Position numbers and translations under genes: made by a program. Positions 1,728 through 6,986 of a DNA stretch of 47,180 nucleotides are shown piece after piece. How positions within the stretch are numbered: the first letter of the stretch is position 1; every line of letters starts with the position of its first letter. The notes under the pieces are model-generated. The model did not search any database, had not been told where the DNA came from, and saw only the letters and a list, made by a program, of their open reading frames with translations. The stretch is from the sequence record JF770475, one strand, 5' to 3'. The DNA is from Escherichia phage phiEB49.

Positions 1728-1772
1728 ATAGCACTTTTTGTTAATGACACTACCCGCTCCGGCGGGTATATT
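1727..1772 (+). promoter_or_regulatory. dyad-motif promoter (variant TAGCA-N5-TGTTA) with hairpin in spacer
   Basis: Core 1729-1743; spacer holds hairpin CCCGC-tcc-GCGGG; TATATT 1767-1772; leader CATCGATAACAACGAGAGAG before ATG 1805. Confidence 0.5.
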
Positions 1773-1804
1773 TATATCCATCGATAACAACGAGAGAGAA
1801 TAAG

Positions 1805-3388
1805 ATGTTTGATTTTAACGAAGATAAGTTATCAGTAGAACAGGTAATGTCTGTTGCGGCAGCTGAGAATTTACCACCTTTGCGAGTTGCTATTAATGCA
1901 AATGGCTATCGTCAAAGCGCTTCATTCTGGAAGGCTCCGGTCGAGATTGATTCAACTGGTGATAAATATCCAGTCATCTCACTTGGAAATGATTGTGATG
2001 TTGTCGGGAAGCTATCTAGCAACATTGCACGCTCCGTTCAGTTCCCTGAATCATCTGCTTACATGCATTTTCTTGGATGCATATCAGCTGCAATGCTTGG
2101 TCGATTCACTGTTGAGTATCACGGAACTCAGCAGCCGACATCCCTGTACGTCGTAACCAGTCAGCCGCCATCAACTGGTAAATCAGCAATCAACTCACTC
2201 GCACTCGCGCCAATGATTGCAGAGACCGAGCGACTGAATGAGATTCGCAAGCGTGACCGTAAGAAGATTATGGCTAAGCTGTCAGCTCTGGCAAAAGAGA
2301 TGAAGCAGGAGAAGTCACCTTCCGAGATGGCTGGATTGTTCGAGGAAAAGGAAGAGTTAGAGGAGAAACTAGAGAAACTTTGCGATATCGTATTTCCAGT
2401 ATCAGACACTACGCCTGAAGGTCTTGCGCGAATAAACAACCGTCAGGGTAACTTCTCCGTGATTTCTGATGAAGCGACAAGTGTTAACTCATTACTCGGC
2501 ATGACATATGGCGATGGCTCGAAGAAAACAAACAGTGAACTTGTTCTTAAAGCATGGGATGCCGGTAACGTATCCATCGCACGCGCTAATGCAGAGAACA
2601 ACATGAGCTTTATCGCTATGGGCTGTATCTCAGTAATTGCTCAGGACGAAACGATCGTCGCAATCATGAATGCTGGCGCTCGCGGTATCGGTGTATCAGA
2701 GCGTTTCCTTCTTGTGCGTGAGAAGTCATTCCTTGGTGAGCGTGTTTTCGTCGATGATAATGGAGAATCAACATATGAGCCTATCGATGGCACCCTTAAA
2801 GCTGACTACTTCCGCCTGGTACATGAAATAATGAATGAGCAAGATGTGAGGCTTACCGTAAGCAATTCAGCGATGAAGCATCTCAACCGTGCGCGCCAGG
2901 AAATGGAACCTCACCTTGCAGATGGCGGTAAGTATTCACATACAATGTTGCGCGGCGCGTTAGGTAAAATGGATAAACAGGTAATTCGCATTGCGGCAGT
3001 TCTTCACACTATCCGCAATTGGTTCAACCCTAATGGCGGTAGTCCGCAGAAGTCAAGGGAGATTGAACTAGAAACGATGCAAGAGGCTTTATTGATGTTT
3101 GAAGAACTGAGTAAGACTTATTTGTCTTCCGCTAACGCGGCTGGTCACGCTGGTGATAATGCAGAGATGAATAAGCTAATTGATATCCTTATTAAGCAAG
3201 GTAAGAACAGCAAAGGAGTTGTAGGGTTGCGCTCACTATATGAAGCGGCGCGTAAGGTTAGACCGTTTGAGGCTCAGGCTGGCGTAATGGCTAAGATTAA
3301 AGACCATTTACTGCCGATGCTTGATGAGAAAAACTACACCTGCCTGACTGGCGATAAGATTTACATTAATCCACGACTGCTGGGGTGA
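1805..3388 (+). CDS. large early protein with P-loop-like motif (PSTGKS); N- and C-terminal domains shared with 46106..46648
   Basis: 527-aa ORF; N-terminus MFDF..RVAINANGYRQSA and C-terminus NSKGVVGLRSLYEAARKV..GDKIYINPRLL recur in the 180-aa paralog; function not assigned. Confidence 0.6.
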   Translation: MFDFNEDKLSVEQVMSVAAAENLPPLRVAINANGYRQSASFWKAPVEIDSTGDKYPVISLGNDCDVVGKLSSNIARSVQFPESSAYMHFLGCISAAMLGRFTVEYHGTQQPTSLYVVTSQPPSTGKSAINSLALAPMIAETERLNEIRKRDRKKIMAKLSALAKEMKQEKSPSEMAGLFEEKEELEEKLEKLCDIVFPVSDTTPEGLARINNRQGNFSVISDEATSVNSLLGMTYGDGSKKTNSELVLKAWDAGNVSIARANAENNMSFIAMGCISVIAQDETIVAIMNAGARGIGVSERFLLVREKSFLGERVFVDDNGESTYEPIDGTLKADYFRLVHEIMNEQDVRLTVSNSAMKHLNRARQEMEPHLADGGKYSHTMLRGALGKMDKQVIRIAAVLHTIRNWFNPNGGSPQKSREIELETMQEALLMFEELSKTYLSSANAAGHAGDNAEMNKLIDILIKQGKNSKGVVGLRSLYEAARKVRPFEAQAGVMAKIKDHLLPMLDEKNYTCLTGDKIYINPRLLG

Positions 3389-3545
3389 CTTATGAGAAAG
3401 ATTGAAAGTTTTGTCATGTATTCATTAATACCTATTCACTTGATTAGCATTTTGTTTTGCATACTATCATTAATCCACGACTTCTGGGGTAGATTATGAA
3501 AAATCTTAAAAACTTTATTGTGCATTCATTAATACCTTTTTTGTT
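3365..3545 (+). repeat. tandem duplication (2 copies, about 105 bp apart) covering the 3' end of the 527-aa gene and a small peptide gene
   Basis: ATTAATCCACGACT(G/T)CTGGGGT at 3365-3388 and 3469-3492, each followed by ATGA and a hydrophobic mini-ORF. Confidence 0.6.
3392..3499 (+). CDS. small hydrophobic peptide (35 aa)
   Basis: MRKIESFVMYSLIPIHLISILFCILSLIHDFWGRL; SD GGGGTGA; paralog of next ORF. Confidence 0.3.
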   Translation: MRKIESFVMYSLIPIHLISILFCILSLIHDFWGRL

Positions 3546-3585
3546 TTTCACATTTGTTTTGGTAATGACTTTAATTTATGGGTGA
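3496..3585 (+). CDS. small hydrophobic peptide (29 aa), paralog of preceding
   Basis: MKNLKNFIVHSLIPFLFFTFVLVMTLIYG; start overlaps upstream stop (ATGA). Confidence 0.3.
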   Translation: MKNLKNFIVHSLIPFLFFTFVLVMTLIYG

Positions 3586-3588
3586 TTT

Positions 3589-3924
3589 ATGTTCTTACTA
3601 GACGTTTTCAGATTTTGTGAGAGTTATGAGAGGTTTAATCGGCAGCACCTGGCGGTATTCATTTATCGCCACAAGGACTGCGAAAGAATGGCAAAAGCCG
3701 CGGGAGTTACTACACGTTACTTTGCATCATCTGCTTCAAAGGAGTTTTTGGCCAGGTGCATGACTGAAGGTTACATCGATGTGGTTAATGGTAATTACTG
3801 CAGCAAAGGCAGCACAAAGCGACCATTCGGATTCAGCTTCAGGTGCCTTAATGGTGAGAGCGATAAGTACACTAAAGAGATGATGACAATAGGTGAAATG
3901 ACAGACGACCAGCTATTTGCATAA
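3589..3924 (+). CDS. hypothetical protein (111 aa)
   Basis: ORF track; followed by bidirectional terminator. Confidence 0.5.
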   Translation: MFLLDVFRFCESYERFNRQHLAVFIYRHKDCERMAKAAGVTTRYFASSASKEFLARCMTEGYIDVVNGNYCSKGSTKRPFGFSFRCLNGESDKYTKEMMTIGEMTDDQLFA

Positions 3925-3926
3925 AA

Positions 3927-3955
3927 GAAAGGAGCCATTAGGCTCCTTTTTTGTT
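3927..3955. terminator. bidirectional intrinsic terminator between convergent genes
   Basis: AAAGGAGCC-atta-GGCTCC followed by TTTTTTG; A-run on the other side. Confidence 0.6.
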
Positions 3956-4342
3956 TCCTGCAAATCTTAAAGCGAAGTAAGTTAGCAAACCTGAAAATAA
4001 TCCAGCCAGAACTCCCCAGACTAAAGAGTCAACACCAGAATTTTCAGTGCTATGAATTTCGATCTTTTCAGCTGTTATTGTGTTAGCTGAGAGGCCCGTA
4101 GCTGCAGTCTTTTTTTGGCTTGATGAGTCTACATCTCTGTTAGTTGAGTTGCGCATATCGCTTTCTACAGAGCTAGATTTGTCTGTTTGATTTGATAATC
4201 CAATACCTGTCTTCTGGTTAGATTCACCAACCTGAGCCGTTGCCTCGATGCCATCCTTTGCTGGTAACAAATCAGAGATGGCTGACATAGCAGAGCAACC
4301 AGTCAGTAAGGTAATTGCCAGAACTACAACTCCGACACGCAT
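3938..4342 (-). CDS. unimolecular spanin (N-terminal lipoprotein signal, C-terminal TMD)
   Basis: Lipobox LLTGCS near N-terminus, hydrophobic C-terminal helix, last gene of lysis cassette and overlapping endolysin 3' end; architecture of T1 gp11-type u-spanin. Confidence 0.6.
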   Translation of the reverse strand: MRVGVVVLAITLLTGCSAMSAISDLLPAKDGIEATAQVGESNQKTGIGLSNQTDKSSSVESDMRNSTNRDVDSSSQKKTAATGLSANTITAEKIEIHSTENSGVDSLVWGVLAGLFSGLLTYFALRFAGNKKGA

Positions 4343-4809
4343 AGTTTAATCTCCGCTTTACGCCTGTTAACCAGGCCTTTGCTAACAACCTTCTTACCAC
4401 CAACGGTAATTTTATTCCACATGGAGAAAGCGTCACACCCACCACGAATATCACCACGATTCATACGCCTGATAACGGTTGAGTTGCGCATTGCGTTGGT
4501 GCCAATATTGTATGACAAGCTGTATAGTGCAGCCCTGGTGCTAACAGGAACATCAACATTTAGCGCCGAATCTACAGCCTTTTGATGAATAGACAAATGC
4601 TTTTCAAGAAGTGTGTCACACTCGCGCTGTGTGTAAACCTTACCCAGAATAACGTCTGGACCAGTAATTCCCTGGCAGACGGTCCATACCCCAGCCACAT
4701 CCTTGTAAGGCTTATATTCAACCCCTTCATACTTATTCAGGAACGGAACAGCCAAAGCCATAGCACCAGCGACTACTGAGCCTATAATCTTATTCTTAAA
4801 ACTCATCAC
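4324..4809 (-). CDS. SAR endolysin (T4-lysozyme-like muramidase with signal-arrest-release N-terminus)
   Basis: Gly/Ala-rich weakly hydrophobic N-terminus followed by YEG..D..T lysozyme catalytic region; start overlaps holin stop. Confidence 0.75.
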   Translation of the reverse strand: MMSFKNKIIGSVVAGAMALAVPFLNKYEGVEYKPYKDVAGVWTVCQGITGPDVILGKVYTQRECDTLLEKHLSIHQKAVDSALNVDVPVSTRAALYSLSYNIGTNAMRNSTVIRRMNRGDIRGGCDAFSMWNKITVGGKKVVSKGLVNRRKAEIKLCVSEL

Positions 4810-5021
4810 TTGCTCCTTATCCTCATTGCCTCACGGATATCGCCATCCTCAAGTGCCTTATGGAGCGCCTTGCTGTCCATCCAGCGCAGCCATGCGCCAA
4901 AGATACCAAAGCACACGGCTACGATTAAGCCAATAATGCCGATGATTGTATTGTCAGATAAACCGCCGCCCATAGCTACTCCGCTACCGGACAAAGCGGC
5001 TGCGTCATAGAAATGCTTCAT
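4806..5021 (-). CDS. holin (small, pinholin-like)
   Basis: 71 aa, hydrophobic TMD IIGIIGLIVAVCFGIFGAWL and charged C-terminus; immediately upstream of endolysin. Confidence 0.6.
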   Translation of the reverse strand: MKHFYDAAALSGSGVAMGGGLSDNTIIGIIGLIVAVCFGIFGAWLRWMDSKALHKALEDGDIREAMRIRSK

Positions 5022-6703: not shown

Positions 6704-6782
6704 TATTTAATTTCCTGTTAGCAGATTATGAAGTACATGATTATAAAGGTTAATGGCATAGCCATCAACGGTAGTAATGTTT

Positions 6783-6986
6783 TCATTGAGCAATTGACCA
6801 GTCAAGGTATTCCTTGTCAACTAGGTCTATCGATATAACATCGCCAGTGTCATCCTCTATGTATACTATGCAGTAGAAGTCGCTATCAACCTTCTTTACA
6901 TCATAAACCTTGCCAATTGTCAGGAAAGTTAAGAAGAAGTCGTGAAGACCTGTACCAAAAGTTACGTCATTTAATTTTACTTTCAT
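6783..6986 (-). CDS. hypothetical protein (67 aa)
   Basis: ORF track; preceded by dyad promoter and conserved leader. Confidence 0.45.
   Translation of the reverse strand: MKVKLNDVTFGTGLHDFFLTFLTIGKVYDVKKVDSDFYCIVYIEDDTGDVISIDLVDKEYLDWSIAQ

Follow-up and report, generated by a model that had tools for sequence, protein, structure and literature searches.

Two unannotated short ORFs in phage phiEB49 and a variable slot between the helicase gene and gp6 of T1-like phages

Introduction

In phage phiEB49, a T1-like coliphage of the Drexlerviridae, a sequence element occurs twice between two conserved genes, that for a DUF3987 "DNA helicase" and gp6, and two short open reading frames (ORFs) can be read in the same interval. 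What is the repeated element, are the short ORFs genes, and how did two of them come to lie one behind the other? The original prediction for this locus, made from the sequence of phiEB49, was of a tandem duplicated module encoding two small hydrophobic peptides. Here we analyze the locus in the window, by which we mean the whole stretch of DNA studied (47,180 nt; sequence record JF770475), and in related phages.

Results

Setting of the short ORFs

The features on which the analysis turns are as follows.

1744..1772, + strand: candidate sigma-70-like promoter upstream of the helicase gene (ATGACA-17-TATATT, 10/12 consensus matches)
1805..3388, + strand: 527-aa DUF3987/"DNA helicase" gene, phiEB49 gp5, T1 gp09 homologue (Pfam, PHROG and ORF list)
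3364..3386, + strand: repeat copy 1, CATTAATCCACGACTGCTGGGGT, true 3' end of the helicase gene (..INPRLLG)
3383..3394, + strand: junction 1, GGGTGACTTATG, GGGGTGA containing the helicase stop TGA, a 3-nt spacer and the ORF1 ATG
3392..3499, + strand: ORF1, MRKIESFVMYSLIPIHLISILFCILSLIHDFWGRL, 35 aa, predicted type A single-helix micro-protein with a chimeric C-terminus
3468..3490, + strand: repeat copy 2, CATTAATCCACGACTTCTGGGGT, apparent relic of the helicase 3' end
3487..3498, + strand: junction 2, GGGTAGATTATG, a Shine-Dalgarno-like site and the overlap of the ORF1 stop with the ORF2 start (ATGA)
3496..3585, + strand: ORF2, MKNLKNFIVHSLIPFLFFTFVLVMTLIYG, 29 aa, predicted type B single-helix micro-protein
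3580..3591, + strand: junction 3, GGGTGATTTATG, the ORF2 stop TGA, a 3-nt spacer and the ATG of the 111-aa gene
3589..3924, + strand: 111-aa gene, phiEB49 gp6, phrog_2794, labeled "YdbL" in some records
3928..3949, no strand assigned: GC-rich hairpin, candidate bidirectional terminator between the convergent + strand operon and - strand lysis genes

The 527-aa gene matches Pfam PF13148 (E 6e-43) and phrog_2373 (E 9e-257), and the OzMSK annotation note names T1 gp09. In the phiEB49 record gp6 is annotated as only 78 aa, starting from an internal Met. The 200-nt gap between the two genes is wholly filled by ORF1 and ORF2, with stop/start spacings of 3, -4 and 3 nt along the series helicase-ORF1-ORF2-gp6. 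The insert has 27% GC (45% T), compared with 46% and 44% GC in the flanking genes and 44% in the genome; T-rich sequence tends toward hydrophobic residues, a point against reading the ORFs as genes.

Each ORF start is preceded by a Shine-Dalgarno-like GGGGT. Pairing with the 16S rRNA tail has a duplex energy of -6.0 kcal/mol at either ORF (the median for the phage's genes is -5.1), which places their Shine-Dalgarno strength in the top 6% of all + strand ATGs. The window contains three occurrences of the motif GGGTRRNTTATG, all of them at the three unit borders, against 0.03 expected; a role as a genome-wide gene-boundary signal was rejected on account of this restriction. The ending found at junction 3 also closes the single type A ORF of Sd1 and Opt-79. 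By its consensus match, the candidate promoter at 1744..1772 may be where the transcript with the small ORFs begins, and at the position equivalent to the candidate terminator hairpin terminators are annotated in Rogue1.

The peptides are strongly hydrophobic, with a maximum Kyte-Doolittle mean over 17 residues of 2.64 for ORF1 and 2.46 for ORF2, and the AlphaFold2 model of ORF1 consists of one helix spanning residues 2-34 (mean pLDDT 88). The prediction of a single hydrophobic helix per peptide is thus supported by the hydropathy values for both ORFs and by the model for ORF1. The body of ORF1 is 97.6% identical to the Sd1 ORF, all differences being synonymous, and its C-terminus reads ..SLI followed by HDFWGRL in place of ..SLIYG. 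The only known relative of ORF2 is a 26-aa ORF in the Logan contig L120. The slot peptides end only in ..YG, ..WS or HDFWGRL; the ending ..YG* arises from GGGTGA and ..WS* from GGAGTTAA.

The repeated element

The element ATTAATCCACGACTKCTGGGGT is present at 3365-3386 and at 3469-3490 on the + strand, with its copies 104 nt apart, and at no other site in the window even when 3 mismatches are allowed; shuffled sequences give an expectation of 0.00 matches. It was originally described as a 24-nt element occurring twice. The two copies are real, and the length is 22 nt as written or 23 nt with the preceding C. The element is the best-kept part of a 104-nt tandem unit, the first 73 nt of which are 79% identical between units.

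The ORF list bears out that the 527-aa gene at 1805-3388 has its last codons (INPRLLG*) in copy 1, and the sequence of copy 1 is kept at the helicase end in every aligned relative. Copy 2, read in the helicase frame, has a single difference, which is synonymous (CTG to CTT, Leu), and then still the stop TAG. In another frame it forms the tail of ORF1, and it also supplies the Shine-Dalgarno-like site for ORF2. Judged by its sequence, therefore, the repeated element is the 3' end of the helicase gene, the second copy being a relic, and not a regulatory motif or a module signal. Of the proposed tandem module this leaves the two homologous small ORFs (35 aa at 3392-3499 and 29 aa at 3496-3585, each following a copy of the element and ATGA, as described), and removes the element as their signal.

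The junction in related phages

The helicase gene and gp6 are separated by at most 4 nt in 75 of 80 IMG/VR loci, and by 3-4 nt in Rogue1, JK06 and Sf12; the Sf12-type junction is GGGGTAATTTATG. Across the relatives this slot holds none, one or two small single-helix ORFs, belonging to at least four sequence types that we call unrelated, or an HNH endonuclease. The occupied slots were these.

Single type A copy: Sd1, the Opt-79 group, L118, L119 and L125
Type C: JulesPiccard, T145P1, 2725-N35, ZL19/IME253, OzMSK/Msk, vB_Ec-G8, L123 and L124
Stacked type B-like ORF and new type D ORF: L120
HNH gene: ETEP102 and L126/L127

In L120 the type B-like ORF directly follows the helicase stop. Identity to relatives is 92-97% immediately upstream of the junction, but over the first 100 nt of gp6 it has fallen to 79-83%. 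Homology of types A and B to type C was unsupported by pairwise alignment, blastn and hhalign. Within the window, neither a source of the module bodies nor paralogues of the small ORFs were found elsewhere. The small slot genes are dispensable, because most relatives lack them and one lineage has seemingly been losing its copy.

None of the relatives' records examined annotates these ORFs, and an exact look-up of eight of the peptides in a collection of 15 billion proteins found none, in agreement with the expectation that annotation had missed them. A search of ORF1, ORF2 and the Sd1 peptide against Pfam and PHROGs gave nothing at E <= 0.1 (best, phrog_13188 at E 0.4), and a profile built from the type A/B alignment had 0 matches among 1.84 billion representative proteins. 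No DNA match was found in 5,426 E. coli genomes. Exact-pattern scans of IMG/VR with the cassette ending and with the helicase-tail/start junction returned only phiEB49 and Sd1, the other matches being unrelated, and a pattern scan of JGI metagenomes returned chance matches only. Literature searches yielded no expression data for these phages and no relevant work on the function of this locus or on the timing class to which the region belongs.

Signs of selection on the reading frames

The samples available for this analysis are small, comprising tens of substitutions in few independent lineages, and the following counts are to be read within that scope. Distinct changes among type A ORFs number 9 synonymous and 5 nonsynonymous (P 4e-4 to 8e-3). 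Between Sd1 and Opt-79 the ratio of synonymous to nonsynonymous changes is 7:3 in frame, compared with 2:8 and 1:9 out of frame. ORF2 and its L120 relative differ at 24 sites, distributed 9/0/15 over the codon positions, none being at the second, and the variable columns of type C are distributed 18/7/20 (P 0.04), with T at codon position 2 in 57-75%. Every indel between homologues comprises whole codons. The ORF frame is open across diverged homologues, whereas stops are numerous in the other five frames; in simulated random divergence an open and equally hydrophobic ORF survived in only 1.6-3% of trials. In contrast, the copy in L121/L122 has a 2-nt frameshift, a synonymous:nonsynonymous ratio of 2:10 and changes distributed 5/5/2 over the codon positions.

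The frames of the small ORFs thus look to be under selection. The original prediction named a lack of conservation of the peptide frame in related phages as part of what would refute it, and the frame is indeed kept, with a synonymous excess in type A and codon-position patterns in types B and C. Within type C, ZL19 and OzMSK differ by 2 synonymous and 13 nonsynonymous changes; any constraint there would therefore be on hydrophobicity and not on residue identity.

Origin of the phiEB49 pair

The best explanation as a whole, which we consider fairly probable from the sequence comparisons, holds that in T1-like phages the helicase-gp6 junction is an accessory slot of variable content, for the most part empty; that both ORFs are genuine protein-coding genes, each peptide being essentially one transmembrane helix; and that recombination between diverged alleles produced the phiEB49 pair and fits better than a recent duplication in place. 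Most likely, the parents were a phage with a type A gene and a diverged phage with a type B gene, which recombined at CATTAAT. This 7-nt microhomology is found in the helicase tail as well as close to the end of the type A ORF, and a crossover there would have brought in a second helicase tail, that is, the repeated element, together with the new C-terminus of ORF1. Recombination of diverged alleles is favored because the two units are only ~66-71% identical in the ORF bodies vs 21/22 in the element; the fall in identity to relatives across the junction also speaks for it. The donor is predicted to have one type B gene alone and a helicase gene ending in ..CTTCTGGGGTAG; L120 is a relative and not the source, and the direct donor was not found among the slot sequences compared.

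A tandem duplication in place, in which a type A unit was doubled by unequal crossover at CATTAAT and the second copy then evolved quickly into type B, is unlikely. The architecture is the exact outcome of an unequal crossover between the CATTAAT in the helicase tail and that at the ORF end, and A and B are clearly homologous, sharing the SLIP motif, the LIYG end and the ending sequence. However, copy 1 is ~2% from Sd1, whereas copy 2 is ~30% from every type A. The 22-nt element in copy 2 has nonetheless only one change, synonymous in a helicase frame that is now unused, and retains its stop. Moreover, L120 stacks unrelated types, and its type B-like gene exists alone directly after the helicase, so type B is an independent allele lineage.

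Expression and possible function

Under the best explanation, the small ORFs, which lack a promoter and a terminator of their own, would be carried on the helicase-gp6 mRNA. Passage of ribosomes from each gene to the next is probable, because the starts follow GGGGT and lie 3 nt past, or overlap, the previous stop. The products would most likely insert in the host inner membrane, where the basic N-terminus of types A and B suggests an N-in orientation. There the peptides would act on a host membrane component for the benefit of the phage, for example in phage exclusion or by altering membrane function. This proposed activity is a guess by analogy, as the peptides have no homologue with an assigned function.

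Alternatively, the peptide itself might be irrelevant, and what matters could be the insertion or the act of translation, as a ribosome relay or as disruption of an HNH target site. Stop/start coupling is kept at every junction, the next gene's Shine-Dalgarno site determines the C-terminal residues, type C conserves little residue identity, and HNH genes occupy the same slot. A relay is not needed, however, because the helicase gene and gp6 are coupled directly where the slot is empty, and the avoidance of second codon positions (0/24 in type B, 7/45 in type C) together with the synonymous excess in type A argues for selection on the product. We therefore regard this alternative as quite improbable.

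It is very doubtful that the peptides are accessory lysis proteins of a holin, pinholin or antiholin-like kind, small single-helix membrane peptides though they are, encoded ~350 nt from the spanin, endolysin and holin genes. Those genes lie on the opposite strand in another transcription unit, with gp6 and the terminator hairpin between, so that the ORFs are outside the lysis cassette. The phage already has a 71-aa T1-type holin at 4806-5021 by its endolysin (PF27028 in relatives), and most relatives lyse without the small ORFs. The peptides have the helix and lack the charged C-terminal domain typical of holins.

That the ORFs are incidental, the region being a noncoding scar of recombination or else an element that acts in regulation or as RNA (promoter, terminator or small RNA), is the least credible reading, despite the AT-rich composition (27% vs 44% GC) and the repeated element: a consensus scan found no promoter-like or terminator-like site in 3389-3588, Rfam gave no match in the region, the ORF frame alone is open across diverged homologues, and the codon-position patterns are coding-like. 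A structured RNA was rejected, as folding is no better than that of shuffled sequences on either strand (z +1.96 for the mRNA strand, which is less structured than the shuffles, and -0.43 for the opposite strand). On the - strand of the region, scans for an antisense RNA gene or promoter found no promoter-like site, Rfam match or unusual structure, scans that a novel small RNA could escape.

Discussion

A more speculative extension, which we hold to be doubtful, is that the junction is a dedicated micro-protein slot, repeatedly colonized by unrelated single-helix genes, possibly arising de novo from T-rich DNA. These would be promoter-less, translationally coupled cassettes, and the 12-nt Shine-Dalgarno/stop/start repeat GGGTGAYTTATG on either side would allow them to be added, stacked, swapped or lost by short-homology recombination, with the HNH homing endonucleases of this junction perhaps driving the traffic. 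The peptides would be fast-evolving weapons at the inner membrane in conflicts of phage with host or of phage with phage.

The slot genes resemble morons, which are extra phage genes inserted at a point where related phages have two neighboring genes with nothing in between. The phiEB49 ORFs sit at a precise junction that is closed in close relatives, have an atypical base composition and are presumably accessory. A classical moron comes with a promoter and a terminator of its own, and its expression is typically from a prophage; T1-like phages are classically virulent. Unlike morons, the phiEB49 ORFs have neither signal, are coupled into an existing operon and are stackable.

Type I toxins (Ibs, TisB and Hok) and small inner-membrane regulators (AcrZ, MgtS and KdpF) are 19-50 aa long and consist of a single helix with almost no soluble part. 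The slot peptides are like them in size and in both of these respects, but differ in having no family match and no E. coli DNA match. By analogy, PfsE of the Pseudomonas filamentous phage Pf4 offers a working model. PfsE is a very small predicted inner-membrane protein with a cytoplasmic N-terminus that binds the host inner-membrane protein PilC and blocks superinfection, a function that needs conserved aromatic residues (PMC8764522). It has no sequence similarity to the slot peptides, belongs to another type of phage and host, and such aromatic residues are not visibly common to the slot peptides.

Many predicted small phage proteins are membrane proteins with no assigned function. According to a review, recent work has brought millions of small phage proteins to light (PMC11323111). 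The slot families differ from such predicted sets in being absent from every protein collection searched, and in that the evidence for them is locus-specific, consisting of comparisons that support selection and of a defined slot with variable content.

If the favored explanation holds, phiEB49, which serves as a transducing tool, would gain two real genes, and the T1-like phages, which are employed in phage therapy and in screens for defense systems, would gain at least four unannotated peptide families. Gene callers and curators missed all of these families. The slot would constitute a compact natural experiment, since genomes that are otherwise alike have it empty, singly occupied, stacked, decaying or taken by an endonuclease, and both the function of tiny phage membrane peptides and the gain and loss of such genes would therefore be directly testable by simple deletions and swaps.

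Two small ORFs at the helicase-gp6 junction

The element originally predicted to be repeated, ATTAATCCACGACTKCTGGGGT, was found twice in the window, at 3365-3386 and 3469-3490, with no further match even when three mismatches were allowed; by chance, none would be expected. It is 22 to 23 nt long, the predicted 24 nt being a miscount. Within a 104-nt tandem unit, with 79% identity between the copies over the first 73 nt, it is the most conserved part. As had also been proposed, copy 1 doubles as the end of the 527-aa gene, encoding its last codons (INPRLLG*). The features of this region are the following.

1805-3388, + strand: helicase gene, 527 aa (DUF3987; phrog_2373, "DNA helicase")
3392-3499, + strand: ORF1, 35 aa
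3496-3585, + strand: ORF2, 29 aa
1744-1772: nearest candidate promoter-like site
3928-3949: nearest candidate hairpin
Junction 1: helicase gene ..GGGGTGA (stop TGA), CTT, ATG of ORF1
Junction 2: ORF1 ..GGGGTAGATTATGA ORF2, with overlapping stop and start
Junction 3: ORF2 ..TGGGTGA (stop TGA), TTT, ATG of gp6

With their 3-nt spacers, ORF1 and ORF2 occupy all 200 nt up to the gp6 ATG at 3589. No other small ORF in + strand intergenic sequence of the window's first 40 kb both starts with ATG and is strongly hydrophobic, and the AlphaFold2 model of ORF1 is a single helix (pLDDT 88). The motif GGGTRRNTTATG was found three times genome-wide (0.03 expected) and is confined to the three unit borders. 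Base pairing predicted between the 16S rRNA tail and the GGGGT(G/A) in front of each small ORF was -6.0 kcal/mol in both cases, stronger than for the median phage gene (-5.1) and in the top 6% of all + strand ATGs. The small-ORF region contains neither a promoter-like nor a terminator-like site, and Rfam gave no match there. The region has 27% GC and 45% T (genome, 44% GC); its mRNA strand is predicted to be less structured than shuffled sequences (z = +1.96), and the opposite strand was unremarkable by the same comparison. We infer that the helicase gene, ORF1, ORF2, and gp6 are carried on one mRNA with translational coupling.

The ORF at 3589-3924 matched "gp6 [Escherichia phage phiEB49]" with 100% identity. 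In the deposited annotation gp6 is 78 aa long, beginning from an internal Met (near 3688); all relatives support a start at 3589 and a length of 111 aa. Since gp6 is annotated from near 3688, about 300 nt (3389-3687) are unannotated in the deposited genome, and both small ORFs fall inside this stretch. The window, which is the whole phiEB49 genome of 47,180 bp, is also present in IMG/VR as UViG_2700988963.

A further hydrophobic ORF of 22 aa (MKTLLPLMAMPLTFIIMYFIIC; 6718-6786, - strand) lies between a 67-aa gene and a 375-aa exonuclease-like gene, in a stretch 94 to 98% conserved among relatives. Two promoter-like sites and a hairpin overlap this stretch, which may therefore be a promoter region instead of a gene.

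Occupancy of the slot in related phages

Over 1800-4400, the nearest relatives belong to the Drexlerviridae, subfamily Rogunavirinae (Shigella phage Sd1 [86.8%], Sf12, Rogue1, and JK06). Alignment of the junction revealed three states of the slot between the helicase gene and gp6: empty, with 3 to 4 nt from helicase stop to gp6 start (Rogue1, JK06, and Sf12); one ORF of 30 aa, MRK[IV]E[SN]FVMYSLIPIHL[IM]SILFCILSLIYG (Sd1 and Opt-79); and two ORFs (phiEB49). In an IMG/VR survey the gap was ≤4 nt in 75 of 80 Drexlerviridae loci, and small-ORF inserts were confined to phiEB49, Sd1, and one IME253-like genome; of the two remaining exceptions, one was a truncated locus and the other an assembly artefact, and an apparent 507-nt gap proved to be a frameshifted gp6. 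Irregularities were also seen in single relatives: gp6 is frameshifted in L044 (1680-2190), and the helicase gene of L072 (1150-1700; UViG_2974785742) has an internal direct duplication of about 240 nt, maybe an assembly artefact.

The pattern was the same when 50,697 phage records were queried with a spliced junction. The small ORFs fall into sequence types, ORF1 being type A and ORF2 type B. Type C ORFs occupy the identical place in the Braunvirinae JulesPiccard, T145P1, 2725-N35, ZL19/IME253, OzMSK/Msk, and vB_Ec-G8; they are hydrophobic, 27 to 28 aa long, and different from types A and B (e.g., MIESILLIILGVVVTISMLLFVLAVLRS), and end in GGAGTTAATTATG. Additional contigs from Logan and ENA, found via the gp6 protein cluster, yielded further copies of type A (L118, L119, and L125) and type C (L123, and L124 with a premature stop), as well as empty slots (L113 to L117). 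In contig L120 from this set, the helicase stop is immediately followed by a type B-like ORF of 26 aa, MKEFLVHSMLPFIFFTLFFLLSLIYG, and then by a 23-aa ORF that belongs to a fourth type, MWFIILCVIFVIWTILRVFFEEM. Types A and B are homologous; no homology of either to type C was detectable.

Like phiEB49, L120 (545-700; Logan SRR18398420, a 45.6-kb contig) is a phage in which two small hydrophobic ORFs are stacked in the slot; here the two are unrelated and join cleanly at GGGTGACTTATG, without a helicase-tail relic. A second variable spot lies beside the slot, where Opt-79-like phages have a 65-aa ORF between gp6 and the spanin gene (L005 [Opt-79], 2521-2718; L125, 1033-1230) that is absent from phiEB49 and Sd1.

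Evidence for coding

Several independent lines of evidence indicate that the small slot ORFs are genes. Intact type A members differ by 9 synonymous and 5 nonsynonymous distinct substitutions, where 20 to 30% synonymous would be expected (P = 4e-4 to 8e-3); between Sd1 and Opt-79 the synonymous:nonsynonymous ratio is 7:3 in the ORF frame, as against 2:8 and 1:9 in the two remaining frames. The type B ORFs of phiEB49 and L120 are 70% identical, and their 24 differences are distributed 9/0/15 over codon positions 1/2/3; by our own calculation, the probability of zero second-position changes is ~6e-5. Variable columns of type C are distributed 18/7/20 (P = 0.04). Residue identity is weakly constrained in type C (ZL19 and OzMSK differ at 2:13 synonymous:nonsynonymous sites), but hydrophobicity is kept. 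Second codon positions are T at 57 to 75% in all types, indels between homologous slot ORFs are whole codons in every case, and the five alternative frames each contain several stop codons. When composition-matched random divergence was simulated, an open and equally hydrophobic ORF survived in only 3% and 1.6% of trials.

A natural contrast, showing how relaxed constraint looks, is provided by a type A copy at 599-713 of L121 and L122 (Logan SRR22560153 and SRR28867353; the same sequence in two independent samples). It has a 2-nt insertion near its end, a 2:10 synonymous:nonsynonymous ratio, changes at 5/5/2 over codon positions, and SLIP replaced by SRIK; its substitution pattern looks relaxed, and it appears to be decaying. 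By these lines of evidence the peptide frame, whose lack of conservation in related phages would have counted against the original prediction, is conserved.

Origin of the two-ORF arrangement

The single-copy type A ORF ends in ..CTATCATTAATTTATGGGTGA and the helicase gene in ..TACATTAATCCACG..GGGGTGA, with CATTAAT common to both. A crossover at this CATTAAT would generate exactly the phiEB49 arrangement and would swap the ..LIYG end of ORF1 for ..LIHDFWGRL, which is the helicase tail in another reading frame. The rival explanation, that the pair arose by duplication in place followed by divergence, explains the data less well. The body of ORF1 is 97.6% identical to that of the Sd1 ORF. For ORF2, identity to any type A ORF is about 66 to 71%; the flanking genes show 85 to 90% identity. 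Identity to relatives falls from 92 to 97% just upstream of the junction to 79 to 83% over the first 100 nt of gp6. In the helicase frame, which is no longer in use there, copy 2 differs in a single Leu codon (CTG to the synonymous CTT), and a stop codon has been kept after it (TAG, versus TGA at the helicase end). Finally, type B stands independently in L120, as the first gene after the helicase gene. For these reasons recombination between two diverged alleles fits better than duplication. No direct type B donor was found among the phages and contigs compared. We also considered the repeated element as a signal of its own and rejected this; copy 2 is a helicase 3' end that probably came along with ORF2.

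The spliced-junction query also surfaced an HNH endonuclease gene in the slot of ETEP102 (L025, 869-1351), and others lie there in L126 (130-645) and L127 (183-698; both PF13392), which come from the Logan and ENA contigs. HNH homing endonuclease genes in the slot of some T1-like phages suggest that the junction is a homing site; if so, homing could drive recombination there. The HNH gene of L127 has its own hairpin and Shine-Dalgarno site.

Possible function of the slot peptides

No informative homologue was found in Pfam, PHROGs, 1.84 billion representative proteins, or E. coli genomes. The N termini of types A and B are basic (MRK.., MK..K), suggesting by the positive-inside rule an N-in/C-out orientation; that of type C is acidic. 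The slot genes are dispensable, because they are absent from most relatives and one lineage appears to be losing its copy, and they are fast evolving and swapped as cassettes. Such traits characterize accessory genes that take part in interactions with the host or with competitors. A role for ORF1 and ORF2 in lysis is unlikely, given that they are on the other strand, in another operon, and that phiEB49 already has a T1-type holin. Our working model, drawn by analogy with PfsE, is of small inner-membrane peptides that would bind or perturb a host membrane component. PfsE is a phage protein of very small size in the inner membrane; it blocks superinfection and has PilC as its binding partner (PMC8764522).

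Near the slot, a 134-aa ORF (3938-4342, - strand) has a lipoprotein-type signal (..LLTGCS..) at its start and a hydrophobic stretch at its end; its annotation in relatives is Rz-like spanin or u-spanin, the spanin type of phage T1 that consists of one component.

A review refers to millions of small phage proteins (PMC11323111). Small hydrophobic accessory phage genes are a known kind, and the present families are new and unannotated. A cassette that has no promoter, is translationally coupled, can be stacked, and sits in a single defined slot shared with HNH genes is a neat variation and introduces no new principle.
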